A stretch of DNA of 64,000 nucleotides from Bacteroidales bacterium (GCA_035342335.1 DAOQWY010000015.1:6971-70970); one strand, 5' to 3'; shown: positions 6,260 through 21,520, counted from the first letter of the stretch. The notes: generated by a model not told the origin, from the sequence alone. A program made the numbers and translations.

Positions 6260-9200
6260 TCAGTAATTGACCGGCACAACACTAATCCAGGTACTGGTAG
6301 TGTATGTCGGGTCGGTAAAATAATCAATGTTGGTGAAGATCATCGCCGGATCGTTCCCTGTACCGCTGTAGCGAATGATTCCATTCATATCCACGTCTTC
6401 CGGATAGTAACCGGTGACGATATCGTTCATTGCAGGGGAGGGGATCAGCGATCCGATCCGGACAAACACATAGGATTTATCATTGTTCGCTCCACTGTAC
6501 CTTAACAGTTTATCCCAGTTGACGTCCCCGGCTATTTGCCCGTAAACTCCTGTTTCAAGGGGGAAGACCGCGTTGGAGGTTCTGTATGCATTGGCGGCGG
6601 AGGCCGTCAGGTCATACCTGGTGGCCTGGGTATTGGGAAGGATAATGGCGCTGGCGGTCATCACCGGAAAGTGATTGCGGTGATAGATGACCACATAATA
6701 AGAATTTCCCTGGACAATCTCATTGAATAACGGCGGATTGACCTGATCGGTGCCGACAATCCACCCATTGCTCAGCAGAAGGGCTGACTGTCGTGCCACC
6801 AGGGTGCTGGCCAGCGTATCCGTTCGGAGCTCAACAACGACCCAGTCCACTGCATCGGCGTTAAAGGAGGTTACCGACTCGGTGCCTTCGTAAGCCAGGG
6901 GTGTGGTTGCATAGGGTTGAAGGAGGGGTAAGTAGCTGCCTGCATTCAGGTCGGTCCGCATCAGGTCCGTGGCGGTGTTGTAGGCTCCCTGCAGGAAGGT
7001 CTTCAGGTATACATAACTGTCTGCAGGTGTTTCAGGACCGATCAGGATGGTAAAATCCTCAACCTCCCCGTAAGTGAACGATTCACAGTAACCGGGAGCA
7101 CTGCCATACTTCATGGAAACACGCATCCTTGTGGTTACGGATAAATCAGAAGGAATAGCCACTGAACCGGTAACCGCGTTTTTTTTATTGCTGGCCGTAA
7201 AGACCTCTTCGCCGGAATCCGAAAAGTCCCCATCATGATTGTAATCGATCCAGATCTTCCAGTATTCAGCATACACAGTGCCTGCATATGCTGGAGTCAG
7301 GATGATACTGTAAGTTTCTCCCGAATTGACAGGAATGGTGTCGGAAGTGAAATTGGAATAGCCTGCAGCACCGGAATTTTTGGTAAAGGAACCAAAGGCG
7401 ACCTGCGCGATCCATTCATCCGAATAGTCAGCGCTACCTGAAGCACAATAGGCCAGATCGACCTGAATGTAATTCGTCTTGGTTTCTGTGTCGCTTTCAT
7501 CCCCATCGCTCACAGTCAGGGTGACATCATAGATCCCGATCGTGTCATAGGTCACTGTTGGGTTTTCCAGGGTGCTGGTGGCTGGTGTGCCACCCTCAAA
7601 CTCCCAGGACCAGGAAGTTGGACTGCCAGTGGAGAGGTCCGTGAAAGCAACGGTCCCCCCGGGGAGCGGTGTGGTCGTGCTTGCTGAAAAATTGGCCGCC
7701 AGCGGCATCGTGCCGATGATAAAGCTGGCAATTTTGGTTTTCCGTGCGCCCCCGGTCCCGATGTACTCAGAGGTGAACCAGAAAGTGTCATCATCCGTGG
7801 GATCAACCTGCATGCCCGAATAATCACCCCAGCGGTTATAGGATGACTGAAAATAAACGCCATCCTGGATGATCTCCTCCGGTACATCGAGGATGCCGCT
7901 GGCGGTGGCATATCCATCAGCTGACTGTCCGCAGTAGCGAATGGCCGGGTAGATGGAAGAGCTGGAAACAGAATATCCCAGGCCGATCTCGTTCTGCCCG
8001 TTCAGCACAATGCTTCCCATCCACCGGGAATGACTGTCCGGAGCATACGTCCCCTGCTGCCTCACCGTCCAGTCCCCGCCGGAAACCCTCCGCAGTTCAT
8101 ACCATCGGATCCCGGCGTGGTCGGTGGCATCCACATCAACCGTATGACAACAGAGAATCGTCTCATAGGTGTTGAAATTCCGGTACTGAGGTGGATTCAT
8201 GATCACCTGGGGAATGGCGTCCAGTTCCTGCGAGGTTCCCAGCTGTTTGATGTTGTCCCAGTTGCTGCCGAAATTGCTGTCGAAAGCTGCCACGTTCACT
8301 TGTTGGGAACGGGTGAAGGTGGAGCTGGAAGGCGTTGTCCAGTCAACATCCAGTTCGTAGATCCAGAGCTGGTCGCTGCCGCCGCCGATCGCATCATCGT
8401 TGATGGTTATGAACAGGCCCGGTTCACCTTCGGGGGCAAAAGGGCCGTCGTTATCCAGTGGCGGCACGCACATGAAACCGTCGATCGTGGTCGGGCGCCA
8501 GGGATTGTTGAAACCAACAGCCTGAGCCGTGCCACCGATGAGCATTTGATCTCTTTCAAGGACATAAATGTCATTGCCCGTCGAATTATTGGTGCCCAGG
8601 TAATATCCATCCCGCCAGATCCCGAACTTCGGATAATCGGGCATGTCGGCAACATCGAAGGAGTATTTGTGCCAGGTACCGGTTGGATCGCTGGTAGTTG
8701 ACACAGCTACCAGCAGGTAGTCGTTTGAGCCGCAAATGGAAAATTCGGCTACCAGCCATCTGTTAGCCTGCTCATCATACAGGACGATGGGATCGCCATC
8801 GTTGCACGTAGATCCGGCGACGCCTGCGAAAAGCGTATTCAAAGCGGAGGGGCCGGCAACCAGCATTCCGGATTTATCATAGATGGCATAAACCGTATTG
8901 ATGGTTTGCATATAATGGTTGGGCCCCACGGAACCATTGGCATCAGGAGGGTAGTAGGGCGAATCCTGCCCGTTGAAGTTAAGGATTGGGGCCCTGGAAA
9001 TGCGATCGGCCCCACCTTGCCTTTGCCAAACCGGATCCGGGCCCTGGGGAAGCGCTGTGGCTGCAAAAGGATATGATCGTGTCCGTAGCTTGGGATTGAG
9101 CAATTTTCGTTCTGCTTTTTCCACCATACGTTGCCAGTCGGCCTCAGTGAGGGTCGGCAAATCCCGTAATGGCGGGGTTTCCCCAAGGTATTCACCGGTA

Positions 9201-9301
9201 ATGACACGTGTGGGTGTGATCTGTTGATCCTGGGCGTTCAGGGATAAGGAGACAGATAACAGCCAAAGCATTCCGATGAACGAAGAAGCATATTCTTTCA
9301 T
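6260..9301 (-). CDS. secreted multidomain protein with PKD and GEVED domains
   Basis: 1013-aa ORF. Signal-like N-terminus MKEYASSFIGMLWLLSVSLSLNAQ. PKD-like segment FSASTTTPLPGGTVAFTDLSTGSPTSWSWEFEGGTPATSTLENPTVTYDTIGIYDVTLTVSDGD. GEVED signature YGEVEDFTI. C-terminal ~250 aa begin YLKTFLQGAY and carry two DxDxNG-like Ca-binding-looking motifs. No T9SS C-terminal domain recognised. Confidence 0.75.
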   Translation of the reverse strand: MKEYASSFIGMLWLLSVSLSLNAQDQQITPTRVITGEYLGETPPLRDLPTLTEADWQRMVEKAERKLLNPKLRTRSYPFAATALPQGPDPVWQRQGGADRISRAPILNFNGQDSPYYPPDANGSVGPNHYMQTINTVYAIYDKSGMLVAGPSALNTLFAGVAGSTCNDGDPIVLYDEQANRWLVAEFSICGSNDYLLVAVSTTSDPTGTWHKYSFDVADMPDYPKFGIWRDGYYLGTNNSTGNDIYVLERDQMLIGGTAQAVGFNNPWRPTTIDGFMCVPPLDNDGPFAPEGEPGLFITINDDAIGGGSDQLWIYELDVDWTTPSSSTFTRSQQVNVAAFDSNFGSNWDNIKQLGTSQELDAIPQVIMNPPQYRNFNTYETILCCHTVDVDATDHAGIRWYELRRVSGGDWTVRQQGTYAPDSHSRWMGSIVLNGQNEIGLGYSVSSSSIYPAIRYCGQSADGYATASGILDVPEEIIQDGVYFQSSYNRWGDYSGMQVDPTDDDTFWFTSEYIGTGGARKTKIASFIIGTMPLAANFSASTTTPLPGGTVAFTDLSTGSPTSWSWEFEGGTPATSTLENPTVTYDTIGIYDVTLTVSDGDESDTETKTNYIQVDLAYCASGSADYSDEWIAQVAFGSFTKNSGAAGYSNFTSDTIPVNSGETYSIILTPAYAGTVYAEYWKIWIDYNHDGDFSDSGEEVFTASNKKNAVTGSVAIPSDLSVTTRMRVSMKYGSAPGYCESFTYGEVEDFTILIGPETPADSYVYLKTFLQGAYNTATDLMRTDLNAGSYLPLLQPYATTPLAYEGTESVTSFNADAVDWVVVELRTDTLASTLVARQSALLLSNGWIVGTDQVNPPLFNEIVQGNSYYVVIYHRNHFPVMTASAIILPNTQATRYDLTASAANAYRTSNAVFPLETGVYGQIAGDVNWDKLLRYSGANNDKSYVFVRIGSLIPSPAMNDIVTGYYPEDVDMNGIIRYSGTGNDPAMIFTNIDYFTDPTYTTSTWISVVPVNY

Positions 9302-9404: not shown

Positions 9405-10274
9405 TCAATCCATTTCAAACCCTGTTCTCAAATGGATATCCCGCTGCGGATAGGGGATCTCAATCGCATTTTCCTTGAACCTGGTAAATATGGCATAATA
9501 TAGCTGGCTTTTCAGAATTATGGGTGTATCAATGTATTCGGAAGTCCATACACGCAGGATAAAGTTGAGGCTGCTATCGGCAAACTCATCAAAAAGCACC
9601 TCGGGCCTGGGGTTTTTCAAAACACCCGGATTTTCATCCGCAACCTGAATCAGGATTTTACGGATCATTTCGGGATCCTCCTTGTAGGACACCCCAACCG
9701 GGAAATTCAACCTGACATTTCTGTCATTATGACTCCAGTTAATGACCCTTGAATTAATAAAATCAGAATTGGGTACAATGACGGTGATATTGTCGTTGGT
9801 GATGATGGTGGTGGCCCTGGCTGAAATCTTCACAATATTACCAGAGAGGTCGTCAATTTCAACTCTGTCACCCACCTTTACAGGCCTTTCAAAAAGGATG
9901 ATAATGCCGCTGATAAAATTATTGGTGACACTTTGTAATCCGAATCCGATCCCAATTCCCAGCGCTCCTATCAGTATTCCCAGAGCGCTCAGGTCGATTC
10001 CGGTGGTCTGGAATATGATCAGCAATCCCAGCAGGACAAGAAAGTAACGCACAATGTTTGCAATGGCCTGGCTAACACCAACATCGAGGTTATACCTTGG
10101 GAATATTTTTTTTACGAGCAGTTTTCGGATCTTTGACGCCAGAAACAAAAGCAGAAAAAGAGAAATTATCAGAAGAATGATAGTCCTGGTGGTGAAAATA
10201 CTTTCACCGAGGTGGAACAATTCAAGGTTCCATACCGAATGAAACCAATCTACTACTTGATCGAAATTCTTCAT
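9405..10274 (-). CDS. mechanosensitive ion channel, MscS family
   Basis: ORF 9405..10316, with an ATG at 10274 (MKNFDQVVDWF). The MscS core is GFGLQSVTNNFISGIIILFERPVKVGDRVEIDDLSGNIVKISARATTIITNDNITVIVPNSDFINSRVINWSH. Confidence 0.85.
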   Translation of the reverse strand: MKNFDQVVDWFHSVWNLELFHLGESIFTTRTIILLIISLFLLLFLASKIRKLLVKKIFPRYNLDVGVSQAIANIVRYFLVLLGLLIIFQTTGIDLSALGILIGALGIGIGFGLQSVTNNFISGIIILFERPVKVGDRVEIDDLSGNIVKISARATTIITNDNITVIVPNSDFINSRVINWSHNDRNVRLNFPVGVSYKEDPEMIRKILIQVADENPGVLKNPRPEVLFDEFADSSLNFILRVWTSEYIDTPIILKSQLYYAIFTRFKENAIEIPYPQRDIHLRTGFEMD

Positions 10275-10286
10275 GGTTGTCTTATG

Positions 10287-10294
10287 CAAATCTA
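10287..10294 (-). promoter_or_regulatory. possible -7 box TAGATTTG for the MscS gene
   Basis: The reverse complement of caaatcta matches TAnnTTTG. It is only 13 nt upstream of the ATG, which implies a very short leader. Confidence 0.3.
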
Positions 10295-10400
10295 TATAAA
10301 TTCGATTATCTTGCAATGCAGAACATAATTTTTTAATATTGTACTGTCAAAGTGCCCATCGAAGGAATCATTTTTCATTGGTGGGGAAAATTTTCCATCT

Positions 10401-13400
10401 ATGACTACGGCAAAACGATTCGGGACATTTGGAGGGGTGTTCACTCCTTCGATCCTGACCATTCTCGGAGTCATTATGTATATGAGACTGCCGATGATTG
10501 TCGGGGAAGCGGGATTATTCGGCACACTGGGTATCATTTTCATCGCCCATCTTATCTCCATCACCACCGGACTGAGTGTATCCTCCATTGCCACTGATAA
10601 GAAAGTAAAAGAGGGCGGCACCTATTACATCATTTCGCGAAGCCTGGGACTGCCCATCGGCGGGACCCTCGGCCTGGCCCTTTTTGTCGGATTGTCTTTT
10701 GCCGTGAGCCTCTACCTGATTGGTTTTTCAGAAAGCTTTCTCGGATACTTCAATTTACCGATGGACATCCGCTCCATCCGCATCACCGGAAGTATCATTC
10801 TCCTGGTGGTGACCATCATTACCTTCATCAGTGCTTCTCTTGCCATCAAAGCCCAGTACCTGATCATGATCGCCATGGGGCTGTCGCTGCTCTCGATTCT
10901 GATGGGCCGGCATGACATGGCACCTTCATCGCCCAATTTTTTCGGACAGGGCACTGGTATTCCGCTGATGGTTCTGTTTGGTATCTTTTTCCCTGCAGTG
11001 ACGGGCTTCGAAGCGGGCGTTTCCATGTCGGGTGATCTGAAAAATCCCAACAGATCGATCCCGAGGGGTACCATTTCGGCCATAATCATTGGATTGGTCG
11101 TTTACATCATTCTGGCATTTTTTTATTCCTATAAAGTGGATGCCGGGTTGCTGGCCACGGATCCCCGTGCCTTATTCAAAATAGCCCTGGTACCGGAACT
11201 TGTGATCGCCGGTATCTGGGGTGCCACGTTGAGTTCAGCCCTTGGAAGTATCCTGGCTGCCCCCAGAATCTTGCAGTCCACCGCCATCGACCGAATCACC
11301 CCCCGTATTTTTTCCAGGGGCGCGGGCGTTGCCAATGAACCACGCAATGCCCTTTTGCTTACCTTCCTGATCGCTGAAGCAGGTATTCTGATCGGCGAAC
11401 TGAATGTTATTGCCCGGATCGTCTCCATATTTTTCATCACCACCTATGGATTTTTGAACCTGAGCGCTGCCTTTGAACGAATCACCAGTCCCGATTTCCG
11501 GCCATCCTTCAAAACACCGGCCTGGGTTAGCATTCTGGGATCGGTGGCCTGTTTTATTGTAATGATCCAGCTTGACTTTCTGGCCATGATCGCTGGTGTG
11601 GTCATCCTGGGATTGCTTTTTGTCGTACTCAAGAGAAGGCAACTGGTACTGGAAACCGGGGATACCTGGAGCAGTGTGTGGGCTACAATGGTCAGGACTG
11701 GCCTGCGGCGATTGAAAAAATCCTCCGAGAATACCCGTAACTGGCGGCCCAATATCATTCTTTTTTGCGGGCAGGATACGGCAAGACCTCATCTGGTTGA
11801 AATGGCGAAAGCCTTCAGTGGCCGACTGGGCATGTTTTCCGCCTTTGAACTGGTGGAATCCAGGGAGCCACGACTGATCAAGGACCAGCGTTATTTTTCC
11901 GCGTCAGGGAAAAAGGATGAATTCCTCATTCATCAGCATAAGTGCCGCAACATCTATGAGGGCATGGATGAAATTGCCCGTGTATATGGTTTTTCAGGGA
12001 TTGAACCCAATACGATCCTGATGGGGTGGAGCAAAAATGCAAAAAATAAGGAGCAGTTTTTGCACCTTATTCAAGGCTTTAAAGAAAGTAATTTCAATAG
12101 CATTTTATTGAATTACAATACTTCGAAAAAATTTGGTGAGAAAAAAACCATCGATGTCTGGTGGAGCGGCAAGGGCCGAAACCTTATTTTTTCGACCTTT
12201 CTCCTGCGACATTTCACTTCGGAGGGTGACTGGAAAGATGCCCGTATCAGGGTAATGGTCATCAATAATGTCCGTGCCAGGACAGAAAGCCTGCACAAGA
12301 TCCTGCAACAGATCCTTACCCGGTACCGGATCACCATGGAAATTAAAATCATTGACAACAGTGCCGACGGATTGCCGGCTAAAGATGTCATCTGCAGGGA
12401 ATCAGGGGCTTCGGACCTGACATTGATCGGTTTACCCGACTTGGAGTACCAGAACATCGATCGTGTTTTTGACAATGTCCTTACACTGTCGCAGCATCTT
12501 GGTACCTTCCTGCTGGTGAACAGCTCCTCCCATTTTGAATCGTTTGATCTCGGCATGGAACCGCAGCCTGATGCAGGGCGCACCATCCTCCCGCCTCAGG
12601 ATCCGGATCTGCCCGCCGTGGAGGCTCCTCCATACCCTGTTGTTCAGGAGGATATCGCCAAAATGGATATCCATGGAAGGCAGATGCACGCCCTTTTCTT
12701 TGAAAAAACGTTCATTCCTGTATTTCAGGACCTTGAAAAGCTTGCCGGGGAAATCCATTCAGCCATTCAAAAGGTTTTTGACCAGATTGATCAGCTTGGC
12801 GACCTTCCCGATGCATACCGCAGGACAAAAACCCTGATCAAGATCAGCAACGATTTTTATTTCAGAACCAGCAGGATCTTCACCGATCTCATTTCCAGGA
12901 AACTTGATCTTCAGAAGTCAACGCTGGATAGCGGAATCAACTGGTACATCAACCAGCTTGACCAGGCCCTCCTGCAATTTCCGGCCAGGATCGAGATTCC
13001 CTATGAAACGAAAGACCTTGCCATACGGAAAAAGGACCCCTTTTTGCTGAAGTGGTTTAAATTCCGCAGGCGCATAACTCATCTCCGCCCCGGCGCAACC
13101 TGGATGGCAAAGATCCACTATCAGGAGATCGCGGCTTATTATCTGCGAAACAATCAGCATGTTTTTCTCAGTGACTTTCTTGAACAGTTTCAAAATGACC
13201 TGTTCAACCAGTTATCGGAAAGCCACGCGCTGACCATCTCTGTGGATGAACTGCTGGAAACCCTCCTAAAAAAAGCATCGAACAAGGATGAATTTCTGGA
13301 TGCAGTCATCAAACACCGTCGGATCATCGAAGATAAAGTTGCTGCGTCAAGCGAAGGGATCAAGAAGCGCACCGAACAGGAGCAGCGTCGTCTGTTAGCG

Positions 13401-15500
13401 GAGTTCCACAAGAACCTTCAGCGGATGAGTAACGACCTGGGAAAGGCCGATGTCAATTTCCGGATACGCCGAAAACGCGGAAAAAGGAACCATTATGAGA
13501 AATTGATTCAGGAAAATGCCGGATTCGCCGAAACATGGTACGATCAAACCCTCTTACAGGTCAATAAGATCCACCTGGACCTACTGGTACAATCATACAG
13601 GAATCGCGTCAAAGACAAGATTAATGAGCTGTATTTGTCCATCAATCAGCAATTGAACAACCGTTACTGTCTGGAACTTAAAAAGGTTCGCTCAAAACTG
13701 GAAAAGTTCAGCGGGAATGTGAACGAGCTCACCGGTTTAAAAAAGCGCATCCAGGCGATCAATAACGACCTTACGTTTTTGCAGGACTTTGACACACTTG
13801 GGGATGAGGTTCTCAAATTGACAGAGTTACTACCGGAGAGCATCGTTATTCCTTCCGGCGGTTCAGCAGAGGCTCAAACGGATGAATCACCAGAGCCACA
13901 GGAGGTCCCCCTGCGTAAGATCACTCGCTTTTACATCGAATCGGGGTTCCTTGGCACGATCCACGACCAGCTGGAAGAAAGCACCGAAAAGTTGAAAGGC
14001 CCGATACTCACGATCCAGGATCTGTTGACCCTGACGTATTTTAATCTTCAAAATATTCCTGACGATCTGTCGGATAAGACCCGTGTGATCGTTTCCATTG
14101 TTGAGGAGGCCAGTGAGAAGATACAGAACGAAGAGGAAAAGATACGCCGGGAGGAGGAACATATCATCAATGGGATCGACAGATCGTTACAGGAAGTGTT
14201 CGGTCAGCTTACCGTTTATCGGATTCCTTTGACATTATCCAATTATTCACGCTTTTTACGTCAACCCCAGGGTAAAACTGTACGAAAGAAAGTGGACATT
14301 TATTTAGAGAGGTTGAATCAGGCTTTCAGGCGTCTTCTGGCAAAGGTGCTTTATTCAAGAAGTGAGGGAATACTCCTGGCCAGGAAGATCACGGAAACCG
14401 GGCCCGGAGTGGAGGGAACACAGCGGATCATTGACCTGGCTGAACAGGTGCGTCCTAAAGACAAAGTACTCGAAAAATTGCCCCAGTTTTACAAAAATCT
14501 GTACAGCGGCCGATCAAGTATCAACGAAGACTTCTGGATCCGGCGTGAAAAGGAAGAGCAAATGTTCAGGATCGCTGTGATGCGGCATCATTCCGGTTAC
14601 GGGGGCGGGATCCTGATCCTCGGAGAGCGAAATGCAGGGAAGACGACTTTTTGTAAGAATATGGCCGCAAAGCTTCTCAGTTCAGAACAGGTTTACCATC
14701 TTTTTCCCGTTCCGGAAGGCTCCTGCCAGGTGTCGGAATTCACAGCCGAATTGGAGAAAGTGACCCGTACACAGGGTTCCGTTGAGGAGATCCTGTCATC
14801 GCTTTCCTCAGATAGTGTTTTGATGATCCACGATCTTGAACTCTGGTGGGAGCGTTCGGTACAGGGATGGGAAGTGGTCAAACTGCTCAAGCGGATGATC
14901 AACGATTACGGCAGAAAGGTCCTCTTTGTGGTCAACATGAACCCGTTCACCTATGACCTGATGCAGAGAATGGTCAAGCTTCAGGAGGCTTTCATCAGCA
15001 TCATCACCCTGAGTCCATTTGATGCATTGGATCTGAAGGAAATGATCATTCGCAGGCATCATTCAAGTGGTTTGAAGTTTGTCTTGAACAAAACGGATGA
15101 GGAAGAACTGTCAGAGATACGGATGGCAAGCCTTTTCAATGCCTATTTTGATTACTCAGAGGGTAATCCCGGAATGGCCCTCAAGGCCTGGCTTGCCAAC
15201 ATCACCGGGGTCTTCGGTCAACGGATCCACATACGACCTCCGCGCCTTCCCGATATGAGTAGGTTGTCGCAACTGGATGAGGACTGGAAACTGGTGCTGA
15301 TCAATATGATTCTGCAAAAAAGAATGGATTGTGATAAAATGGCCAGGATATTCCATATGGATAGTGTACGTGCAAAAGATATCATTATCTCGATGGAAAG
15401 GGTTGGCCTGATCGAAGAACGAAATGAAAACCTGTACAATGTGAATACGTATCTGGAACCGCATCTGGTTAGGGCATTCAAAAAGGAAGGATTTGTATGA
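10401..15500 (+). CDS. fusion protein: SLC12/CCC-type cation-chloride cotransporter + long helical region + C-terminal P-loop (AAA+/ORC-like) ATPase with winged-helix-like tail
   Basis: One uninterrupted 1699-codon frame. The N-terminus FGTFGGVFTPSILTILGVIMYMRLPMIVGEAGL plus about 12 hydrophobic segments indicate a CCC/APC-fold permease. RNWRPNIILFCG, IEPNTILMGWS and IDVWWSGKGRNL indicate an SLC12 cytoplasmic domain. Walker A GERNAGKT is at 14622-14645. Walker B-like VLMIHDLE is at 14817-14840. Confidence 0.8.
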   Translation: MTTAKRFGTFGGVFTPSILTILGVIMYMRLPMIVGEAGLFGTLGIIFIAHLISITTGLSVSSIATDKKVKEGGTYYIISRSLGLPIGGTLGLALFVGLSFAVSLYLIGFSESFLGYFNLPMDIRSIRITGSIILLVVTIITFISASLAIKAQYLIMIAMGLSLLSILMGRHDMAPSSPNFFGQGTGIPLMVLFGIFFPAVTGFEAGVSMSGDLKNPNRSIPRGTISAIIIGLVVYIILAFFYSYKVDAGLLATDPRALFKIALVPELVIAGIWGATLSSALGSILAAPRILQSTAIDRITPRIFSRGAGVANEPRNALLLTFLIAEAGILIGELNVIARIVSIFFITTYGFLNLSAAFERITSPDFRPSFKTPAWVSILGSVACFIVMIQLDFLAMIAGVVILGLLFVVLKRRQLVLETGDTWSSVWATMVRTGLRRLKKSSENTRNWRPNIILFCGQDTARPHLVEMAKAFSGRLGMFSAFELVESREPRLIKDQRYFSASGKKDEFLIHQHKCRNIYEGMDEIARVYGFSGIEPNTILMGWSKNAKNKEQFLHLIQGFKESNFNSILLNYNTSKKFGEKKTIDVWWSGKGRNLIFSTFLLRHFTSEGDWKDARIRVMVINNVRARTESLHKILQQILTRYRITMEIKIIDNSADGLPAKDVICRESGASDLTLIGLPDLEYQNIDRVFDNVLTLSQHLGTFLLVNSSSHFESFDLGMEPQPDAGRTILPPQDPDLPAVEAPPYPVVQEDIAKMDIHGRQMHALFFEKTFIPVFQDLEKLAGEIHSAIQKVFDQIDQLGDLPDAYRRTKTLIKISNDFYFRTSRIFTDLISRKLDLQKSTLDSGINWYINQLDQALLQFPARIEIPYETKDLAIRKKDPFLLKWFKFRRRITHLRPGATWMAKIHYQEIAAYYLRNNQHVFLSDFLEQFQNDLFNQLSESHALTISVDELLETLLKKASNKDEFLDAVIKHRRIIEDKVAASSEGIKKRTEQEQRRLLAEFHKNLQRMSNDLGKADVNFRIRRKRGKRNHYEKLIQENAGFAETWYDQTLLQVNKIHLDLLVQSYRNRVKDKINELYLSINQQLNNRYCLELKKVRSKLEKFSGNVNELTGLKKRIQAINNDLTFLQDFDTLGDEVLKLTELLPESIVIPSGGSAEAQTDESPEPQEVPLRKITRFYIESGFLGTIHDQLEESTEKLKGPILTIQDLLTLTYFNLQNIPDDLSDKTRVIVSIVEEASEKIQNEEEKIRREEEHIINGIDRSLQEVFGQLTVYRIPLTLSNYSRFLRQPQGKTVRKKVDIYLERLNQAFRRLLAKVLYSRSEGILLARKITETGPGVEGTQRIIDLAEQVRPKDKVLEKLPQFYKNLYSGRSSINEDFWIRREKEEQMFRIAVMRHHSGYGGGILILGERNAGKTTFCKNMAAKLLSSEQVYHLFPVPEGSCQVSEFTAELEKVTRTQGSVEEILSSLSSDSVLMIHDLELWWERSVQGWEVVKLLKRMINDYGRKVLFVVNMNPFTYDLMQRMVKLQEAFISIITLSPFDALDLKEMIIRRHHSSGLKFVLNKTDEEELSEIRMASLFNAYFDYSEGNPGMALKAWLANITGVFGQRIHIRPPRLPDMSRLSQLDEDWKLVLINMILQKRMDCDKMARIFHMDSVRAKDIIISMERVGLIEERNENLYNVNTYLEPHLVRAFKKEGFV

Positions 15501-15533: not shown

Positions 15534-16250
15534 ATGAAGTTTATCATTGCGCTCCTTATTGCCTTGCTGATCTTTCTGGCACTGAAACTTATCGGATTCC
15601 TGTTGAAATATCTGTCGTACCGGTTCGCCAGAATGGGTTTTCTGCATCATCTCAGGGTGGTACTCGGATTTATCGCCTGGCTGTTCTTTATCTTTTGGGC
15701 GATGGATTACTTGTTCAGAAACGAGTTCTTCTTTCCGTATCTTCTTTCTGTCCTTATTCTTCTCGTCGTCGGTTTTCTGGGATGGTACCTGCTGAGGGAT
15801 TTATTTGCCGGTATTGTTTTCAGAGTGAAGTATTCGCTGAAAAAAGGTACGCATATCCGGGCGGGAGAGATCTCAGGCATCATCCAATCCCAGCATCTCA
15901 CCTGCCTGAAGATCATAACAGACGATGGTCAGATGCTCCGGGTTCCCTATTCGAGAATTAACCACGAAATGATCATCGAACGGGTTCAGCCTGGTGTGCT
16001 CAAAGGTACTGTTGTTCATCTTCTCGTCGACTCTTCGCTGAGCAAATACCAGGTCGAAACCCTGATCCACGACACCATTTTGAATTTACCCTGGAGTAGC
16101 CTGAAAGAAGAGCCTGCCATCCGGTTCCTTCAGGAAAACGAAAAGGAACATAGGGTTGTGGTGACTTTTTATACGTTAAGTGCGAAGCATGCCAGGCTCA
16201 TTGAGGCGGCCCTGGTAGAGATCCCTTCTGTCAGGATGAAGGCTGGATAA
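15534..16250 (+). CDS. small membrane protein with MscS-like beta-domain
   Basis: 238 aa with hydrophobic N-terminal segments. GTHIRAGEISGIIQSQHLTCLKIITDDGQMLRVPYSRI resembles the MscS motif xGDxIxxxGxxGxVxxIxxRxTxxxxxDGxxxxIPN. It starts 33 nt after the fusion gene. Confidence 0.5.
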   Translation: MKFIIALLIALLIFLALKLIGFLLKYLSYRFARMGFLHHLRVVLGFIAWLFFIFWAMDYLFRNEFFFPYLLSVLILLVVGFLGWYLLRDLFAGIVFRVKYSLKKGTHIRAGEISGIIQSQHLTCLKIITDDGQMLRVPYSRINHEMIIERVQPGVLKGTVVHLLVDSSLSKYQVETLIHDTILNLPWSSLKEEPAIRFLQENEKEHRVVVTFYTLSAKHARLIEAALVEIPSVRMKAG

Positions 16251-17079
16251 GCTGTTTCTGGTTGTTTTTCCTGGTATAATCCTCCAGCGATAAATAATCC
16301 GCACCCTGCAGCTCTGTAAACCGTATGCTGTAACCCTTCACGCCGAAGATCAGCTCAAGTGCCCTTTCAACGTGATGCCGGAGGGGTTCGGTGATCCATT
16401 TTAATTCGGAAGGACCATTTTCCGTATCTTTCTCCACCTGTGCCCTGATTTCCTCTTTAAGTTTGCTGGCAATATGGTCCAGCCTGGGATTCGTTTTCCA
16501 GTGTTCGCTCCCAAAAAAAGGGGTGTTCAATTCCAGTATCTCGGCGATTTCCCAAGTGCAGGCCCTTTTCGTAAAGGATAAGAATTCCGGATCTGCATTT
16601 TTGATGAAAATTTCCCTGTTCTCCTCGTCTATTTTGAACATCAATTTATGAAAATCCACTCCGTATTTTGCGATGAAATCAACGTTGATCACGCCAATGA
16701 ACTGTACATCCTTTCCTTTGCTATTGAACTGCTGATTCACCGTCCTTTTAAAATTGGTGTTGACTTCAAAAAGACCCAGCTCCAGGACCGTGTTGATCTC
16801 GGAGATGTTCAGCTTTCTTTTTGCATAGTCTTCATTTTCCTGTTCTAATTTCTGGTTCTCAGCTTTCACTTTCAACAGCTCCTCATTCAACGTATCGATC
16901 TGCTGCATTTTTTCTTTCAGGAGGAATTCCCATAACAGAACGAGGAAAGCGGTGAGGCCCAGAACGATCAATCCGATGATGAACACCTTGTTGAAAAGCA
17001 GGAGCACTGCCAGCAGAAGCAGCGCTCCTGCCATAAGGTAGAACTTGAACTTTCTGAACAAATTGGTCCTTCGTGGCAT
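16231..17079 (-). CDS. membrane-anchored coiled-coil protein, DUF4230-like
   Basis: 282 aa. One or two N-terminal TM segments, then a coiled coil (EELLKVKAENQKLEQENEDYAKRK). The stretch FIGVINVDFIAKYGVDFHKLMFKIDEENREIFIKNADPEFLSF resembles the DUF4230 core. The family call is tentative. Confidence 0.45.
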   Translation of the reverse strand: MPRRTNLFRKFKFYLMAGALLLLAVLLLFNKVFIIGLIVLGLTAFLVLLWEFLLKEKMQQIDTLNEELLKVKAENQKLEQENEDYAKRKLNISEINTVLELGLFEVNTNFKRTVNQQFNSKGKDVQFIGVINVDFIAKYGVDFHKLMFKIDEENREIFIKNADPEFLSFTKRACTWEIAEILELNTPFFGSEHWKTNPRLDHIASKLKEEIRAQVEKDTENGPSELKWITEPLRHHVERALELIFGVKGYSIRFTELQGADYLSLEDYTRKNNQKQLIQPSS

Positions 17080-17341
17080 TGTTATGCTTTGATAAGCTCC
17101 CGCATGGGAATGATTGTGTTACAAATGTACGTTTTATTGCGTTACCACGTATTTCCGGCAGCGCGGTTTGTCAGCTGTATGGATGCAGATTTCCTTCCTT
17201 TGTCGGGAAAAAAACAATTTAATTAATATCTTGTTGATTTATAGATGTTTATATTAATGAATAAAAATAAGGACAAATTTTTTGTAATTATGGATAGTTT
17301 TATATTTTTAGATGCTTAAATATTCACTAAAATTCCAGACT

Positions 17342-18712
17342 ATGAAACCCGATTTTTTTAGCCTAAAGATTGTACTCGTAGCCTTCTTTCTCAGCCTTTT
17401 TTATGCAGGCTGCGACCTGTTCCAGAAAGACGATGACGAAGAGGAACCGAAGGAGGGTTTTACGGAAACCCTCTTTGTAAATCCTGAAGATGGCCAGATC
17501 ATCCAGTACGACAGTGCAGGAAGGAAGGCCACCTTCATAGGGGAAAAGGACAGCGAGGGTTTGCCAACGAAAATCACCCAGGCCATTGTCGACGGGGAGG
17601 ACCTTTCAGAGGAAAGCCGCACCGTCATCACATTCGATGACCAGGGAAGAACCACCTCCCTGAGCAGTGAAGCCAACGGTTACATGACCCTTGAGTATGT
17701 ATCGGACACCCAGGTGGTGGTGGTATACACCCTCCCTGATCACATGGAATCCTTTCAGATTACTTTCAATCCCCAGAGTGCAAAGAAGGTTGGGGATTGC
17801 GGATGCCCGGGCGTCAGAAAGGAAACGGAGACAAGCTTCACCAGACGAAGCGATGCGAACGCACCTGTTGTTCAGCAGCCCCCAAGGCAGGAAGCCCCGC
17901 CTGTTTCGCTTAAATCAGGTCTGGAGCTCGAAGGCGATATCCATACTTATTTCAATCAGACCGTCAACCCGGTCACAGGAAACACCGTGTTGGGCATGTG
18001 GGAAGCACCGGATGGCAAAACCGGGGCTTTGAAGATCATTCCCGAGGGACCCGGTAAGTTCAACTATTTCTTCCCTTCCAATCCTGCACCACCACCACCG
18101 GCCGGATTTTCAGACAAGGCGAAGAATCTTCTCACCCTCCTCTGTATGGGTGCCATTCCCATCACACTTGCCAAAGAACAGATCTGCCTGTCATTTACGG
18201 CGGGTTTTGCTGCCTGCGAGGCGATCCTTACTGCTTATGTATGGCTCTGCAGGGCCAATTCGGTCCATACGATCGGGACGTTCACCTATGATATTTACTC
18301 TGCTAAGAGCATTCACGTATTCGTGAATTCCCTGCATCCCAATTTGCCCGCCAAAAGGGGCGAAACCAACTTCAGTCCCTCCGGCTCGTCCCTACCGGAG
18401 ATCAACATTGTCTACGATGCCTATGCCGTCATCGGTAATCTTACCACATCACCGCCCGATCCTGATCCCAACCAGGGATATACCATCTATGCCACGATCC
18501 TGAACGTGATCCCGGGGATTGATCAGGCCAAACTTTCCATGGTCGGTAGCGATGGGTATACAAAAGAACAAACCTTTGAACTGGATGCTTCCGGGGTCTG
18601 CTCGATGTTCATTCCCGGAGCATTGGAGGGTGTGAGGGACGACATCACGGCGGAGGTCATCAATCAATATCCGCAACCCGGACAGACCGTGACCATTTCC
18701 ATCATTTTCTGA
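17342..18712 (+). CDS. hypothetical lipoprotein
   Basis: ORF 17312..18712. The ATG at 17342 gives MKPDFFSLKIVLVAFFLSLFYAGC, a lipobox-like signal with Cys, followed by an acidic linker DDDEEEPKE. No family recognised. Confidence 0.55.
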   Translation: MKPDFFSLKIVLVAFFLSLFYAGCDLFQKDDDEEEPKEGFTETLFVNPEDGQIIQYDSAGRKATFIGEKDSEGLPTKITQAIVDGEDLSEESRTVITFDDQGRTTSLSSEANGYMTLEYVSDTQVVVVYTLPDHMESFQITFNPQSAKKVGDCGCPGVRKETETSFTRRSDANAPVVQQPPRQEAPPVSLKSGLELEGDIHTYFNQTVNPVTGNTVLGMWEAPDGKTGALKIIPEGPGKFNYFFPSNPAPPPPAGFSDKAKNLLTLLCMGAIPITLAKEQICLSFTAGFAACEAILTAYVWLCRANSVHTIGTFTYDIYSAKSIHVFVNSLHPNLPAKRGETNFSPSGSSLPEINIVYDAYAVIGNLTTSPPDPDPNQGYTIYATILNVIPGIDQAKLSMVGSDGYTKEQTFELDASGVCSMFIPGALEGVRDDITAEVINQYPQPGQTVTISIIF

Positions 18713-18782: not shown

Positions 18783-21254
18783 TTAGTTCAAGAGGATCAT
18801 TTTTTTATGGAATGACCTGTCACCGGCCGTTAACCGGTACACATAAACACCGGGTTTGACACGGCAACCCGACATATCCTTTCCATCCCATGCGATCAAT
18901 TTTACTCCGGGCGTTTCCGTACGGTTGAGGAGTGTTCTGACCAGCCTGCCATCCAAAGTATGAATGGTAAGGGTTATGTGCGAAGGGTTGGAAAGCTCGT
19001 AGGTGATCTGTGTGTTTTCACAGAAGGGGTTCGGGTGGTTGCCCAGCAGCCGGAAGGAATGTGCCGGTTCATCCTGCACGTGTGTGACCACATTCTCAAG
19101 GGCATAGAGCTCAACATCGTCGATGTTCCAGCCACAGTACCTCCACCCGGCATCGGTGGATCCCATGGTCCAGCGGAGGTACACATCCGGCTGATGGTCG
19201 GCCACATCTGAAATGTCGATCTCCACGGGGACCCAGTCGTTATCGGTGATCTCTTTATCGTTTGTCCAGATGGTCTGCCAGTTAATCCCATCATTGCTCA
19301 CCCTGACATACGCATGATCAAACTGTGGTTTTTCCACGCCCAGCCACCGCATGAACTTCAGCCGGACCCCGTACCAGTTTGAGCAGTCGATAGAATTGGA
19401 TGTCAGGTGTTTCTCCAGCAGGTTGTTTTGATAATCCCCCTGCAGGTTATATCCGTAGACATTATTCTGTGTGTACCCTTGGGTGGGATCAGGATAACCG
19501 TGTTCGCCTCCGGATCCGGTAGGCTGACCAAATCCCCAGTCGGCCTCGGTGGTCCAGCCCGGATCTGTTTCAAAGGACCATTGTTGTTTCAGCATTGGCT
19601 CGCCAACCAGTAACACCACATTCCTTGAAATGTCAGCCTTTTGACCGGTGAGGCGGATGAACCGGAGGACGGAAGGATAGGCTCCGGGAGAAAGGGTGGC
19701 GGCGTTTTCATTGACCTCCAGTGTGATCAGAGCGACCTCACCCTGATCAAGGATTCCCTGCGATGGTCCGGTCAGGGTAAGCCAGGGCACCAACGGATCC
19801 AGTTCAACGGAATACTCAACAGGTGTGATGCCCTTGTTCTCAAGACTGTAGGTTTTGCTGGATGGAGTGAACGGACCGCCCATACTGCCCCGGGGTTTGA
19901 AATTTTCTTCGGGAGTCACTTCCAGCCCTGATGCCACTGTCAGCGCTTTGACACAGAAGTTGCCGGTATGGAGGAACCCGGAGGGATCGTCATAATCATA
20001 GAAATCGATCCATTGTCCGTCGCTTCTGTAATAACTTTCGCCGTAACTGGCTGCAGATTCAACGATGGTCCTGTAGCTGGCACCCAGCAGCACCGGCACA
20101 TCGGAGGTTCTGTCGTAGGGATAGCCTCCTTCGGAAAGGGTAAGCTGAACGTAAAAGTCGTCCCCTTCATCCAGTTCCACCATCTCATCCAGGTCGAGGG
20201 TATGGAATCCCCTGAATTCAATGGTACCGCTCAGGGATGATAGTACGTTCTGCAGCTCGCCCCCGATGAAATCATCAAACAGGGTGACCGTGTACTCCAC
20301 ACCATTTGCGGCCGTGAAAAAGCTTACCGCCCGGAGCAGCTCCTCACCCTCGCTGATGAATTTATTGGCAACGGCTGTGCAACCGGTGAAGGTGTCGCGC
20401 CAGCCGTGGTAATCGTGGTAATAAATATGCTCATATTGCTGAGGTTCGGCATTGCCAAAGGAGATGCCGCCCATTTCAGGATGATGGCCGCAATGTTTGT
20501 CGTAATAGGAGATCCAGAAATACCCGTCGAGCCCCCAGCTGCTGCCCCAGCTGTTCTTGCACAGCCAGGCCCCGGGCAACGGCGCCTGTGTGGCCTTGTC
20601 ATCATCCCATCCCACAATGGCCACGGCATGATTTGGGTCGAGGGTTGATGTTGGCGGCTGGTAATGAATGTAATTGCTGATGAAACTGCCATTGGAGCAC
20701 AGGCAGGTCCCCATCACGCCATGTTCCATGATGCTCTGTTTCATCGCGTTGATGTTCTCCAGGTTATCACCGGCGGTGAACCATTCAATGTCGCGTGGGT
20801 AATAGTAGTGATAACCGGGAGCATCACGGGCAGGAGGTATGTCGAAGGATTGTCCGTCGATATCGCGCACGGCTCCCTCACCCCTTGAAAGGTAAGCCGA
20901 GGTCACCATGTAATCTCCTCCCTGGTGGACGGTCAGGCCGCTGCCCGAAGGAGGCTGCAGGTCATCATTGTTGTGCTGGTTGAACCCGTTCCACCAGTCC
21001 AGATGGTACTCTGCCAGGTTGGGTTCTCCCGATTCTCCGGCCGCTGCCCATACCCCGGTGATCAGCAGGTTCCCTTCGATGGCCGCCATGGCGCCGTGGG
21101 TCCAGCAGGTCCCCCCATCCTGCGATTTGACAGAGGTAACATAGCTGATCCCGTCAACATCCCGCAGATCGAACGTTGCAGGCGGATCCGGACGCTGGCC
21201 CAGAGCAAAGGAACTTAGAAATATGAATGCAATGAAGGAGAGTTTTTTTGTCAT
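18783..21254 (-). CDS. papain-family (C1) cysteine peptidase with T9SS C-terminal sorting domain
   Basis: ORF 18783..21344. The ATG at 21254 gives the signal MTKKLSFIAFIFLSSFALGQ. Catalytic Cys context is KSQDGGTCWTHGAMAAIE, His is NHAVAIVGWDD, and Asn/Trp is CKNSWGSSWGLDGYFWISY. A MAM-like domain follows. The C-terminus HPNPFCENTQITYEL...VKPGVYVYRLTAGDRSFHKKMILLN is a typical Por/T9SS C-terminal domain. Confidence 0.85.
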   Translation of the reverse strand: MTKKLSFIAFIFLSSFALGQRPDPPATFDLRDVDGISYVTSVKSQDGGTCWTHGAMAAIEGNLLITGVWAAAGESGEPNLAEYHLDWWNGFNQHNNDDLQPPSGSGLTVHQGGDYMVTSAYLSRGEGAVRDIDGQSFDIPPARDAPGYHYYYPRDIEWFTAGDNLENINAMKQSIMEHGVMGTCLCSNGSFISNYIHYQPPTSTLDPNHAVAIVGWDDDKATQAPLPGAWLCKNSWGSSWGLDGYFWISYYDKHCGHHPEMGGISFGNAEPQQYEHIYYHDYHGWRDTFTGCTAVANKFISEGEELLRAVSFFTAANGVEYTVTLFDDFIGGELQNVLSSLSGTIEFRGFHTLDLDEMVELDEGDDFYVQLTLSEGGYPYDRTSDVPVLLGASYRTIVESAASYGESYYRSDGQWIDFYDYDDPSGFLHTGNFCVKALTVASGLEVTPEENFKPRGSMGGPFTPSSKTYSLENKGITPVEYSVELDPLVPWLTLTGPSQGILDQGEVALITLEVNENAATLSPGAYPSVLRFIRLTGQKADISRNVVLLVGEPMLKQQWSFETDPGWTTEADWGFGQPTGSGGEHGYPDPTQGYTQNNVYGYNLQGDYQNNLLEKHLTSNSIDCSNWYGVRLKFMRWLGVEKPQFDHAYVRVSNDGINWQTIWTNDKEITDNDWVPVEIDISDVADHQPDVYLRWTMGSTDAGWRYCGWNIDDVELYALENVVTHVQDEPAHSFRLLGNHPNPFCENTQITYELSNPSHITLTIHTLDGRLVRTLLNRTETPGVKLIAWDGKDMSGCRVKPGVYVYRLTAGDRSFHKKMILLN

Positions 21255-21520
21255 GATTTTTACTGTTTTGTATCTATTGATTAAAATACCAGACCTAAAG
21301 GTCAATGGGGTTATTTTCCCTAAAAAAACATTGGATCTTTCCAAAAGAAGATATTCTTTTTATGGTCTGCCTTTTTTTAGTGAACACCGGCTCTTCCGGG
21401 AAGATGGTACAAAGGTAGGGATTTATTTGTCCCGGTTCCACATACAAAAACACGCATTCAATTGAAGTAAAATTCTTTTTCTTTTTTTAAATAATACTTG
21501 AAAACCAGTAATTTATTCAT

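Follow-up and report, generated by a model that had tools for sequence, protein, structure and literature searches.

Why is a cation-chloride cotransporter (CCC) joined, in a single reading frame, to a long helical region and an ATPase? The question is raised by a gene in a stretch of 64,000 nucleotides from a Bacteroidales bacterium, the whole of which is hereafter called the window. To our knowledge bacterial CCCs are almost unstudied functionally, with nothing established on their regulation, and we know of no characterised CCC that carries a C-terminal extension of helical, AAA+ and winged-helix domains. We describe the anatomy of the fusion protein, its distribution and its gene neighbourhood, and propose that it probably controls salt and osmotic balance.

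Domain anatomy of the fusion protein

The original prediction, made from the DNA of the window, described one uninterrupted frame of 1699 aa, and the ORF list and translation bear this out: the frame runs from ATG to stop at 10401..15500 on the plus strand (1699 aa and the stop codon), where all features of the fusion lie. The motifs quoted in that prediction all fall in the translation where it had put them: the FGTFGGVFTPSILTILGVIMYMRLP signature at residues 7-31, RNWRPNIILFCG at 446-457, IEPNTILMGWS at 534-544, IDVWWSGKGRNL at 584-595, a Pro-rich stretch at 721-746 (nt 12561-12638) and the tail MARIFHMDSV...GLIEE at 1646-1672.

Assignment of the N-terminal part to the CCCs, with an SLC12 domain, also held. 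Both AA_permease (residues 13-411, E=5e-42, 144.6 bits against a cutoff of 24.6) and SLC12 (PF03522, E=6e-9, 35.9 bits against 27) score above their Pfam cutoffs. TIGR00930 is matched at E=1e-112, but with 378 bits against an NCBIfam cutoff of 953; we take this model to reflect mainly eukaryotic members. The transmembrane domain, of LeuT/APC fold, comprises residues 1 to about 440 (10401..11720, plus strand). Hydrophobic segments are confined to residues 9-417 of the whole fusion protein, with none beyond; the transporter aligns to TM1-TM12 of NKCC1, and solved NKCC1/KCC structures are matched at E~1e-75. The N-terminal regulatory domain is absent, TM1 starting from about residue 9 in the alignment with hNKCC1. 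The SLC12 cytoplasmic C-terminal domain, placed by the Pfam match and by alignment with KCC2, occupies residues 445-715 (11733..12545, plus strand); the KCC2 cytoplasmic-domain alignment reaches query residue 654. Prokaryotic CCCs had been said to end at about 700-750 aa, and many unfused bacterial homologues are indeed of 725-733 aa; these share 46-60% identity with the CCC half of the fusion and end at ~727 aa.

In hNKCC1 the Na+ site is made up of L297, W300, A610, S613 and S614, the K+ site of N298, I299, Y383, P496 and T499, and the Cl2 site includes Y686 (PMC9713717). Their counterparts in the alignment are L19, L22, A275, S278 and S279 (Na+), T20, I21, Y105, P198 and T201 (K+), and Y349 (Cl2). 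The unwound TM1 stretch L19-T20-I21-L22-G23-V24-I25 (10455..10475, plus strand) aligns to hNKCC1 L297-M303; within it N298 is replaced by T20, at a position that coordinates through its backbone carbonyl. All positions checked at the Na+, K+ and Cl- (Cl2) sites are invariant or at least 90% conserved in the family. Because the ion-site residues of hNKCC1 map to conserved residues, we call the transporter half probably active as a CCC of the Na+/K+/Cl- type.

A Pro-rich disordered linker follows at residues 716-746 (12546..12638, plus strand), with pLDDT below 50 for model residues 1-20 and low conservation, the family consensus being mostly 'x'. Beyond it lies a domain of long helices, about 600-630 aa (residues 747-1345; 12639..14435, plus strand), for which AlphaFold2 gives pLDDT 81 and pTM 0.71. 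The original prediction had called this region coiled-coil-like; helical it is, and a bundle of helices of 45-60 residues with small beta elements is the better description. No fold match was found among solved structures (Foldseek against PDB, best E=0.17, the matches being designed helical bundles), no match to a sequence profile in PDB or to Pfam, and no internal repeats by hhalign (best probability 5.5%). A profile search with the helical region gave one match, the word prefilter having probably been swamped. On its model, then, the domain would be a confidently predicted large fold without a counterpart among solved structures.

The remainder, residues 1346-1699, had been read as an ORC/Cdc6- or archaeal-ATPase-like NTPase with a P-loop and a winged-helix tail, for which profile searches and structure prediction were suggested as checks. 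The former left the window protein itself below the Pfam cutoffs (AAA_16 21.8 against 32.6; AAA_22 16.7 against 27; ATPase_2 13.9 against 33.2; nSTAND models also sub-threshold), while relatives pass them: P0093 with AAA_16 (33.9), P0143 and P0121 with AAA_22 (29.3-29.8), and nSTAND3 was passed too. The AAA_16 model covers the 'R..E...h' helix ahead of the P-loop. No sequence homology to any solved structure was found for the C-terminal 984 aa with phmmer and profiles. Structure prediction gave a Cdc6/Orc1-like fold (pLDDT 79, pTM 0.78) with five core strands, a lid and a winged helix, which Foldseek matches at probability 1.0 to Cdc6 (1fnn), Orc1/Cdc6 (2qby, 2v1u), RuvB, ORC subunits and the Pyrococcus Arch_ATPase PAB2304 (2qen). 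E-values are about 1e-8 for Cdc6, Orc1, RuvB and ORC subunits, with TM 0.4-0.48, and range from 1e-8 to 5e-7 for the best matches 1fnn, 2qby, 2v1u, 1w5t and 2qen.

Conservation of the ATPase was counted in 68 family sequences, down to ~29% identity. The pre-core motif LPQFYKNLFSGRSSIxEDFW and the AAA+ alpha/beta core take up residues 1346-1540 (14436..15020, plus strand). In Walker A (GERNAGKT, residues 1408-1415; 14622..14645, plus strand) G1408, G1413 and K1414 are present in all 68, R1410 in 67 and T1415 in 66. Walker B (VLMIHDLE, residues 1473-1480, followed by LWWE; 14817..14840, plus strand) has D1478 and E1480 in 68/68. The sensor-1-like N1512-M-N1514 (14934..14942, plus strand), at the end of strand beta4 in the model, keeps each Asn in 67/68. 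Model helices place the AAA+ lid at residues 1541-1600 (15021..15200, plus strand), where R1552, G1588 and G1591 are invariant (68/68) and P1590 nearly so (67/68); inside it, at the sensor-2 position, is the GxP-type motif GNPG (residues 1588-1591; 15162-15173, plus strand). Neither an invariant Arg between beta4 and beta5 nor a box VII arginine finger was seen in the 68-sequence alignment; R1552, found where the lid starts, might act as arginine finger or in sensor-2. A beta-hairpin, the winged helix (H-H-H-wing) and a terminal helix, placed by model secondary structure and fold matches, complete the protein (residues 1601-1699; 15201..15497, plus strand), which ends about 30 residues past the winged helix. 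Fold, invariant motifs and the scores of relatives together confirm the P-loop assignment of the original prediction. Since the catalytic motifs are conserved at close to 100% and the fold matches Cdc6, Orc1, RuvB and PAB2304, the ATPase is probably catalytically active.

Distribution, integrity and gene neighbourhood

Relatives of the C-terminal module fall into 535 representative clusters at E<=1e-30 (50% identity clusters) and occur in at least 293 GTDB species; the best 80 loci of the 293 species are nearly all from Bacteroidota. A single ORF of ~1,690-1,720 aa is found in most of these best 80 GTDB loci, and an ORF of fusion size in 30 protein clusters and in at least 60 independent genomes, complete chromosomes included. 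Carriers belong to soil, sediment and marine lineages, among them Bacteroidales and Cytophagales. The fusion is a conserved feature of Bacteroidota, not the curiosity of one MAG. It was asked at the outset whether such a fusion might be both common and functionally annotated: common it is, functionally annotated it is not, its only names in public records being 'amino acid permease' and 'hypothetical protein'.

Could the long ORF be an artefact, two genes, one for a transporter of ~730 aa and one for an ATPase, merged by a chimeric assembly or by an overlooked stop or frameshift? Four split entries speak for this: P0031 (990+718 aa), P0032 (1452+235 aa), L089 and L090. Their breaks lie at differing positions away from the domain boundary, at homopolymer runs. 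P0031 and P0032 were considered as natural splits at that boundary and rejected, as they break inside the helical and ATPase regions; L089 and L090 change frame at homopolymers, 15 codons apart. Three of the four are in contig_N-style assemblies (possibly long-read), and L090 is on a SPAdes contig of 4x coverage. The orthologue survey that the original prediction had recommended found no stop at the boundary, these rare splits being frameshifts elsewhere. For the family, a chimeric assembly or missed frameshift is ruled out by the single ORF kept in more than 60 independent genomes, and we give the artefact virtually no credence. On these comparisons the fusion is real and ancient. A third architecture, an SLC12-CTD half with the module (~1,130-1,200 aa), was also considered and dropped, since tblastn located the CCC half immediately 5' of it, in a different frame.

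The gene 34 bp downstream of the fusion (15534..16250, plus strand) encodes an MscS-like protein of 238 aa, called the partner below. It has three TM helices, an MscS beta-domain and a C-terminal alpha/beta domain; PF00924 is matched at E=7e-8 (32.9 bits against a cutoff of 20.2), with three hydrophobic segments N-terminal to the beta-domain. In 67 of the 80 loci a homologue of the partner comes next on the 3' side, and the two genes frequently overlap by 4 bp. The Cytophagales partner is a soluble alpha/beta domain of ~110 aa without the channel part, and this retention of the alpha/beta domain only points to it as the interaction element. On the other side, divergent and 84 bp upstream of the fusion, is a gene for a canonical MscS channel of 303 aa (9405..10316, minus strand; MS_channel_2nd E=9e-22, MS_channel_3rd E=9e-19), and many Bacteroidales loci likewise have a second MscS, of 278-285 aa, close to the fusion. 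Na+/H+ exchanger genes also flank the fusion; the neighbours vary by lineage in the loci examined, the downstream partner alone being constant. The context of the locus, as read from its genes, is osmotic. Scans for sigma-70 promoters and terminators around the locus stayed at chance level, the models being unsuited to Bacteroidota promoters.

Stand-alone modules, with no CCC attached or nearby, form one clade. They sit between two Na+/H+ exchangers, one of which has a Usp domain, and keep the partner gene. The clade is nested among fused lineages, in an NJ tree only, and on that tree the fused state therefore looks ancestral. Its existence shows that no covalently attached CCC is needed for the module to function, so that the CCC may not be the module's primary target, and it offers a natural experiment in which module and transporter are separated. 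The pairing with a downstream MscS-like gene and the stand-alone clade between Na+/H+ exchangers are newly seen here. Neither the partner gene nor the stand-alone form had been mentioned in the original prediction.

Proposed role and alternatives

We propose that CCC, helical sensor and ATPase switch act with the partner on osmotic ion flux, a reading we consider to have about an even chance of being right. The Cdc6/ORC/AAA_16-like ATPase, with its lid and winged helix, would be the nucleotide switch and the helical bundle of about 600 aa the sensor or transmission element; cycling between nucleotide states, the ATPase would set transporter activity by way of the helical domain and the SLC12 cytoplasmic domain. 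Animal CCCs have N- and C-termini under phospho-regulation, in whose place this built-in regulatory end may stand. The fusion would form a unit with its translationally coupled downstream product, contact being made through the partner's small cytoplasmic alpha/beta domain. With an MscS-like channel as partner, as in Bacteroidales, the locus would couple salt uptake by the CCC to an MscS-like release valve, and the tight genetic pairing suggests such coordination of salt uptake and release; this would serve osmotic, volume or ion homeostasis. We infer that the ATPase regulates transport and physically contacts the partner, and infer likewise the direction and the signal of that regulation. Regulation through nucleotide gating, or the sensing of ionic or osmotic conditions, had been proposed originally, and it appears more likely given the conserved neighbourhood of MscS and Na+/H+ exchanger genes.

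A more specific version is tentative and rather unlikely: an osmotic homeostat of a kind not recognised before, in which the Cdc6/STAND-like ATPase with its novel helical sensor would read a cytoplasmic signal and reciprocally control the cotransporter, covalently, and the MscS-like valve, through the alpha/beta domain. Ionic strength, Cl- or K+, crowding and energy charge are candidate signals, put forward just as tentatively. If true, the homeostat would do in bacteria, by means of an ATPase, what WNK-SPAK/OSR1 control does for eukaryotic CCCs, and would be the first case known to us of an AAA+ ATPase inside a secondary transporter. The dimeric state of CCCs and the heptameric state of MscS would give any complex an awkward stoichiometry, which counts against the main reading; so do the stand-alone clade, the lack of a functional hint from the helical domain and the conserved box VII arginine finger that was looked for and not seen.

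The order of importance might also be reversed, with the module working primarily on the MscS-like partner, in its assembly, gating or remodelling, and the CCC no more than a membrane anchor or a later addition. Of partner gene and CCC, the former is the more constant and adjoins the stand-alone module where no CCC is nearby, and the 4-bp overlaps suggest stoichiometric co-production; the Cytophagales partner, however, has no channel part, so channel gating cannot be universal, the stand-alone forms are nested in fused lineages (on the NJ tree only), and the CCC ion sites are under strong constraint. We hold this to be unlikely. Quite unlikely, in our estimate, is a membrane-tethered transcription regulator or DNA anchor, whose winged helix would bind DNA, either in a 'trigger transporter' through which ion flux is signalled to gene expression, for instance that of the flanking MscS genes, or to tie the membrane protein to the chromosome. 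It would suit the H-H-H-wing tail, the closest folds (Cdc6, Orc1, ORC and RuvB), which use their winged helices on DNA, and the 84-bp intergenic region shared with the divergent MscS gene. Against it, the winged helix has a mean net charge of +0.35 over 68 members, with extremes of -5 and +5, and shows conservation at core positions only (G1669, K1640) and a variable recognition-helix surface. The neighbours, moreover, differ between lineages, the downstream partner excepted, and the equivalent winged helix of STAND NTPases is a structural latch and not a DNA binder.

STAND NTPases with membrane effectors are also known in defence, and weak matches to the nSTAND_NTPase5, nSTAND3, NACHT and BrxC_BrxD models would fit an anti-phage or conflict system in which an invader is detected by a STAND-like NTPase and the fused transporter and the channel depolarise the membrane. 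The PADLOC matches, however, are confined to mad8 and PDC-S01 and cover no more than the P-loop, at E~2e-3; the surroundings are stably those of ion homeostasis across hundreds of Bacteroidota species, with no recognisable defence genes in the loci examined, and the ion sites are fully conserved, as in a housekeeping carrier. Defence is thus very improbable.

Relation to known systems

With other SLC12 CCCs (NKCC1, NCC, KCC1-4 and the unfused bacterial 'Na-K-Cl cotransporter' of ~727 aa) the fusion shares the 12-TM LeuT fold and the SLC12 domain; it differs from them in its ~985 extra C-terminal residues and its missing N-terminal regulatory domain. Cdc6/Orc1 initiators, Arch_ATPase (PF01637) and AAA_16 proteins have the same layout of core, lid and winged helix, the Walker A and B motifs and an Asn at sensor-1. 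Unlike Cdc6, with its 'GDAR' sensor-2 Arg, the fusion has GNPG and no conserved box VII Arg was seen; unlike Cdc6/Orc1, its ATPase is part of a membrane transport protein, and the variable charge of the winged helix gives no evidence of DNA binding. The STAND NTPases (MalT, AfsR/LAL, NACHT, NB-ARC, nSTAND) resemble it in the unit of NBD, helical domain and winged helix, in a GxP-type motif, which the fusion family conserves at ~100%, in aromatic and acidic residues after Walker B (DLELWWE in the fusion) and in the concept of a sensor that controls a switch. They differ in that the large region of the fusion is N-terminal to the ATPase and is not a recognised TPR, WD40 or LRR array, that its sensor-1 is Asn, as in classical AAA+ proteins, and not the STAND Arg, and that the window protein itself scores below all STAND cutoffs.

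Control of an ion carrier or channel in osmotic homeostasis by an attached cytoplasmic domain, either nucleotide-binding or a helical sensor, is a principle shared, by analogy only, with RCK/KTN-regulated Trk, Ktr and Kef, CBS-domain OpuA, ProP with its C-terminal coiled coil and bCNG (MscS with a cNMP-binding domain); no homology to these systems was detected. ATP binding by the KCC cytoplasmic domain (PMC8280820) can be likened to the fusion in the same way. Unlike the fusion, none of these systems, KCC included, has an AAA+/Cdc6-like ATPase or a helical bundle of ~600 aa, nor does any of them join a CCC to a P-loop ATPase. The partner shares TM helices and the MscS beta-domain with MscS channels, is shorter than E. 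coli MscS, and has a C-terminal domain that PF21082 does not recognise. In the literature searched we found neither a CCC-ATPase fusion nor any secondary transporter described as containing an AAA+/Cdc6-like ATPase.

The record name 'amino acid permease' is misleading, and 'cation-chloride cotransporter with C-terminal AAA+ module' would be better. One carrier of the single ORF, Fulvivirga sp. M361 (WP_143397376.1), is named and apparently cultured, so that the hypotheses set out here may be directly testable.

Architecture and spread of the fusion

The fusion is a single ATG-to-stop open reading frame (ORF) of 1699 aa at window 10401..15500(+), and in its translation the motifs quoted in the original prediction all lie where they had been placed. 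Pfam matches above cutoff were to AA_permease (residues 13-411, E=5e-42) and the SLC12 cytoplasmic domain (E=6e-9); TIGR00930 (K-Cl cotransporter) matched at E=1e-112, and the N-terminal 715 aa match solved NKCC1, KCC and NCC structures at E~1e-75. Hydrophobic segments are confined to residues 9-417, leaving about 1,280 residues cytoplasmic. The C-terminal 984 aa gave only sub-threshold P-loop matches in Pfam (AAA_16, E=3e-4), other sub-threshold matches being nSTAND_NTPase5, AAA_22, AAA and ATPase_2, and no sequence relative was found among solved structures. In public records the fusion carries no name more specific than ‘amino acid permease’ or ‘hypothetical protein’.

This architecture is genuine, ancient and widespread. 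Residues 716-1699 as query recovered about 30 clusters (1,692-1,702 aa, identity down to 29%), all with the permease domain. A C-terminal profile, searched against 1.84 billion representatives, matched 2,762 proteins at E<=1e-3, of which 535 reached E<=1e-30; the top 150 of all 2,762 mostly measure 1,670-1,740 aa. Scanning one genome per GTDB species, we found a relative of the module (helical domain, AAA+ ATPase and winged helix) encoded in 293 genomes. The best 80 of these cover Bacteroidales, Rikenellaceae, Lentimicrobium, Paludibacter and many Cytophagales (Cyclobacteriaceae, Fulvivirga, Ekhidna, Marivirga, Tunicatimonas, Imperialibacter, Ohtaekwangia), and include complete chromosomes and a named Fulvivirga sp. 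M361 record; with few exceptions they hold a full cation-chloride cotransporter (CCC) in frame with the module, in an ORF of ~1,690-1,720 aa. Unfused bacterial CCCs with 46-60% identity to the N-terminal half cluster at 725-733 aa, bearing out what the original prediction held about ordinary prokaryotic CCC length, so the ~985 residues beyond this length are an addition peculiar to the fusion family.

Of the two kinds of exception, frameshifted copies (P0031, P0032, L003, L023, L070, L089, L090) break at varied positions, none at the domain boundary. Junctions were read in L089 (6840-7060) and L090 (1930-2110), where the breaks sit at short homopolymer runs no more than ~15 codons from the conserved motif EPNTILMGWS in the SLC12 cytoplasmic domain. 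These genomes are unrelated, one GC-rich (7-Mb contig) and one AT-rich (4x-coverage SPAdes contig), and we read the frame changes as independent indels or pseudogenes; about nine representatives of ~1,130-1,200 aa from the profile search may have the same cause. An Ekhidna sp. chromosome (OZ253940.1) carries two paralogous fusion copies ~2 Mb apart (L057, L065), the latter with two canonical MscS genes ~3-4 kb downstream. One family member lies on a 3.6-kb contig (L041, CAKZMZ010000586.1) of a MAG labelled Thalassobius sp. (Alphaproteobacteria); it is probably mis-binned, since every other labelled match is from Bacteroidota.

Transporter, helical region and ATPase tail

The transporter half was aligned to human NKCC1, with ion-site residues taken from PMC9713717. 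The NKCC1 Na+ site (L297/W300/A610/S613/S614) corresponds to L19/L22/A275/S278/S279, the K+ site (N298/I299/Y383/P496/T499) to T20/I21/Y105/P198/T201, and Y686 of the Cl2 site to Y349. Across the fusion family all these positions are invariant or at least 90% conserved, and the transporter half looks functional. The two TM8 serines together with the TM3 tyrosine suggest an NKCC-type carrier using Na+ and K+. With TM1 beginning near residue 9, there is no counterpart of the N-terminal regulatory domain found in animal CCCs. The fusion shows every testable defining feature of SLC12/CCC transporters and, as a transporter, is a member of that family.

Residues 716-746, a Pro-rich linker that is disordered and poorly conserved, lead into a confidently predicted bundle (residues 747-1345; pLDDT 81, pTM 0.71) of helices 45-60 residues long with two small beta elements. 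For this region Foldseek found nothing significant in the PDB (best E=0.17), and no sequence-profile match, Pfam family or internal repeats were found. Within the fusion its conservation is lowest, with only seven positions at least 95% conserved, but its length is near constant and its alignment almost gap-free.

The tail (residues 1330-1699) was modelled with AlphaFold2 from a 12-sequence alignment (pLDDT 79, pTM 0.78) as a five-stranded alpha/beta core, helical lid, beta-hairpin and classical winged helix. Foldseek returned 351 PDB matches at E<=1e-3, led by Cdc6 (1fnn, E=1.1e-8), RuvB, Orc1/Cdc6 (2qby, 2v1u, 1w5t), eukaryotic ORC subunits and the Pyrococcus Arch_ATPase PAB2304 (2qen); each of these matches spans three domains at probability 1.0. 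In a 68-sequence alignment covering Bacteroidales, Cytophagales and a stand-alone clade, Walker A G1408/R1410/G1413/K1414/T1415, Walker B D1478/E1480, N1512/N1514 (sensor-1 position), R1552 and G1588/P1590/G1591 of a G-x-P-G motif are each kept in 66-68 sequences, the signature of an enzyme predicted still to bind and hydrolyse nucleotide. Some relatives pass the Pfam cutoffs for AAA_16, nSTAND3 and AAA_22; the window protein is below curated family thresholds for its tail.

The tail is predicted to fold and work like a Cdc6/ORC/AAA_16-type AAA+ switch. However, no conserved arginine finger was identified in the alignment, and the position of the Cdc6 sensor-2 arginine holds a STAND-like GxP motif; the tail does not fit the STAND domain order. 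The module therefore falls cleanly into neither the Cdc6/ORC nor the AAA_16/STAND type but lies in between. The most conserved peptide of the C-terminal half, LPQFYKNLYSGRSSINEDFWIRRE (window 14478-14549, residues 1360-1383), immediately precedes the AAA+ core at low model confidence (pLDDT 52-65) and may serve in interaction or nucleotide sensing.

Partner gene and stand-alone modules

The main new finding is the partner gene and its neighbourhood. An MscS-like gene of 238 aa (15534-16250(+); PF00924 above cutoff) lies 34 bp 3′ of the fusion, and an HMM built from partner proteins places a homologue right after the fusion stop codon in 67 of the 80 loci with room for one. The overlap is very often 4 bp, which points to translational coupling. 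The partner is 2-3 kb further downstream in several remaining loci; in three from Bacteroidales (L023, L026, L031) it is displaced to ~11.1-12.1 kb in locus coordinates by something inserted in between.

Three TM helices, an MscS beta-domain and a C-terminal alpha/beta domain make up the 238-aa partner. Across many Cytophagales, Fulvivirga among them, the partner is a soluble protein of ~100-115 aa rather than an MscS-like channel, aligning only to the alpha/beta domain, with NPW conserved; its gene always overlaps the fusion stop codon by 4 bp (L044:8865-9200, L063:8853-9179, L059:8859-9206, L039:2911-3255, L002:5392-5715). The constant element is thus this small cytoplasmic domain, which is likely the contact for the module.

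The other kind of exception is a genuine clade of stand-alone modules of ~975-1,000 aa, which (L062:5935-8883; L077:4185-7175; L048:3216-6176; L069:5956-8883) have no CCC within 6 kb. The clade's position among fused lineages in a rough NJ tree suggests that the CCC part was lost secondarily. These modules are still paired with an MscS-like gene. On one side lies a divergent 423-aa Na+/H+ exchanger and on the other the partner, beyond which comes a 707-aa Na+/H+ exchanger-Usp fusion protein. A Na+/H+ exchanger gene and a canonical MscS (window 9405-10316(-)) also recur beside the fusion-partner pair.

Proposed function and flanking genes

That osmoregulatory transporters can carry nucleotide or helical sensing domains is well established, as with RCK on Trk/Ktr/Kef, CBS on OpuA, the coiled coil of ProP and the ATP-binding cytoplasmic domain of KCC. 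Our literature search found no description of a secondary carrier bearing a fused AAA+ ATPase together with this helical domain and partner. What was observed is the anatomy, the conserved catalytic and ion-site residues and the gene linkage; coupling of the switch to transport, including its signal and direction, is inferred. In the best-supported reading, to which we give about an even chance, a working Na/K/Cl cotransporter would carry the AAA+/Cdc6-like ATPase as a nucleotide switch, joined to the SLC12 cytoplasmic domain by the large helical element and acting jointly with the co-translated partner. Together they would make up a unit for ion and osmotic homeostasis.

Alternatively, the module's real client may be the partner, with which stand-alone modules remain paired; we consider this unlikely. 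Slightly less likely still is a membrane-tethered DNA-binding regulator: the tail does end in a winged helix, but across the 68 sequences its mean net charge is +0.35 (range -5 to +5) and exposed recognition-helix positions vary, which argues against conserved DNA binding. A defence system is highly improbable, PADLOC having found no such relationship, and an artefact is next to inconceivable for so common a fusion. The fusion is widespread, conserved and potentially testable in a cultured strain; its proposed function is read wholly from sequence.

ORFs at 16231-17079(-) (282 aa) and 17312-18712(+) (466 aa) had no Pfam match at E<=0.01; the position of the former is sometimes held by a canonical MscS at other loci. 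Large secreted-type proteins at 6260-9301(-) (1013 aa; PKD and GEVED domains) and 18783-21344(-) (853 aa; Peptidase_C1, lectin-like and FlgD_ig, with a weak match to the T9SS sorting signal Por_Secre_tail) fit a Bacteroidota origin of the window.
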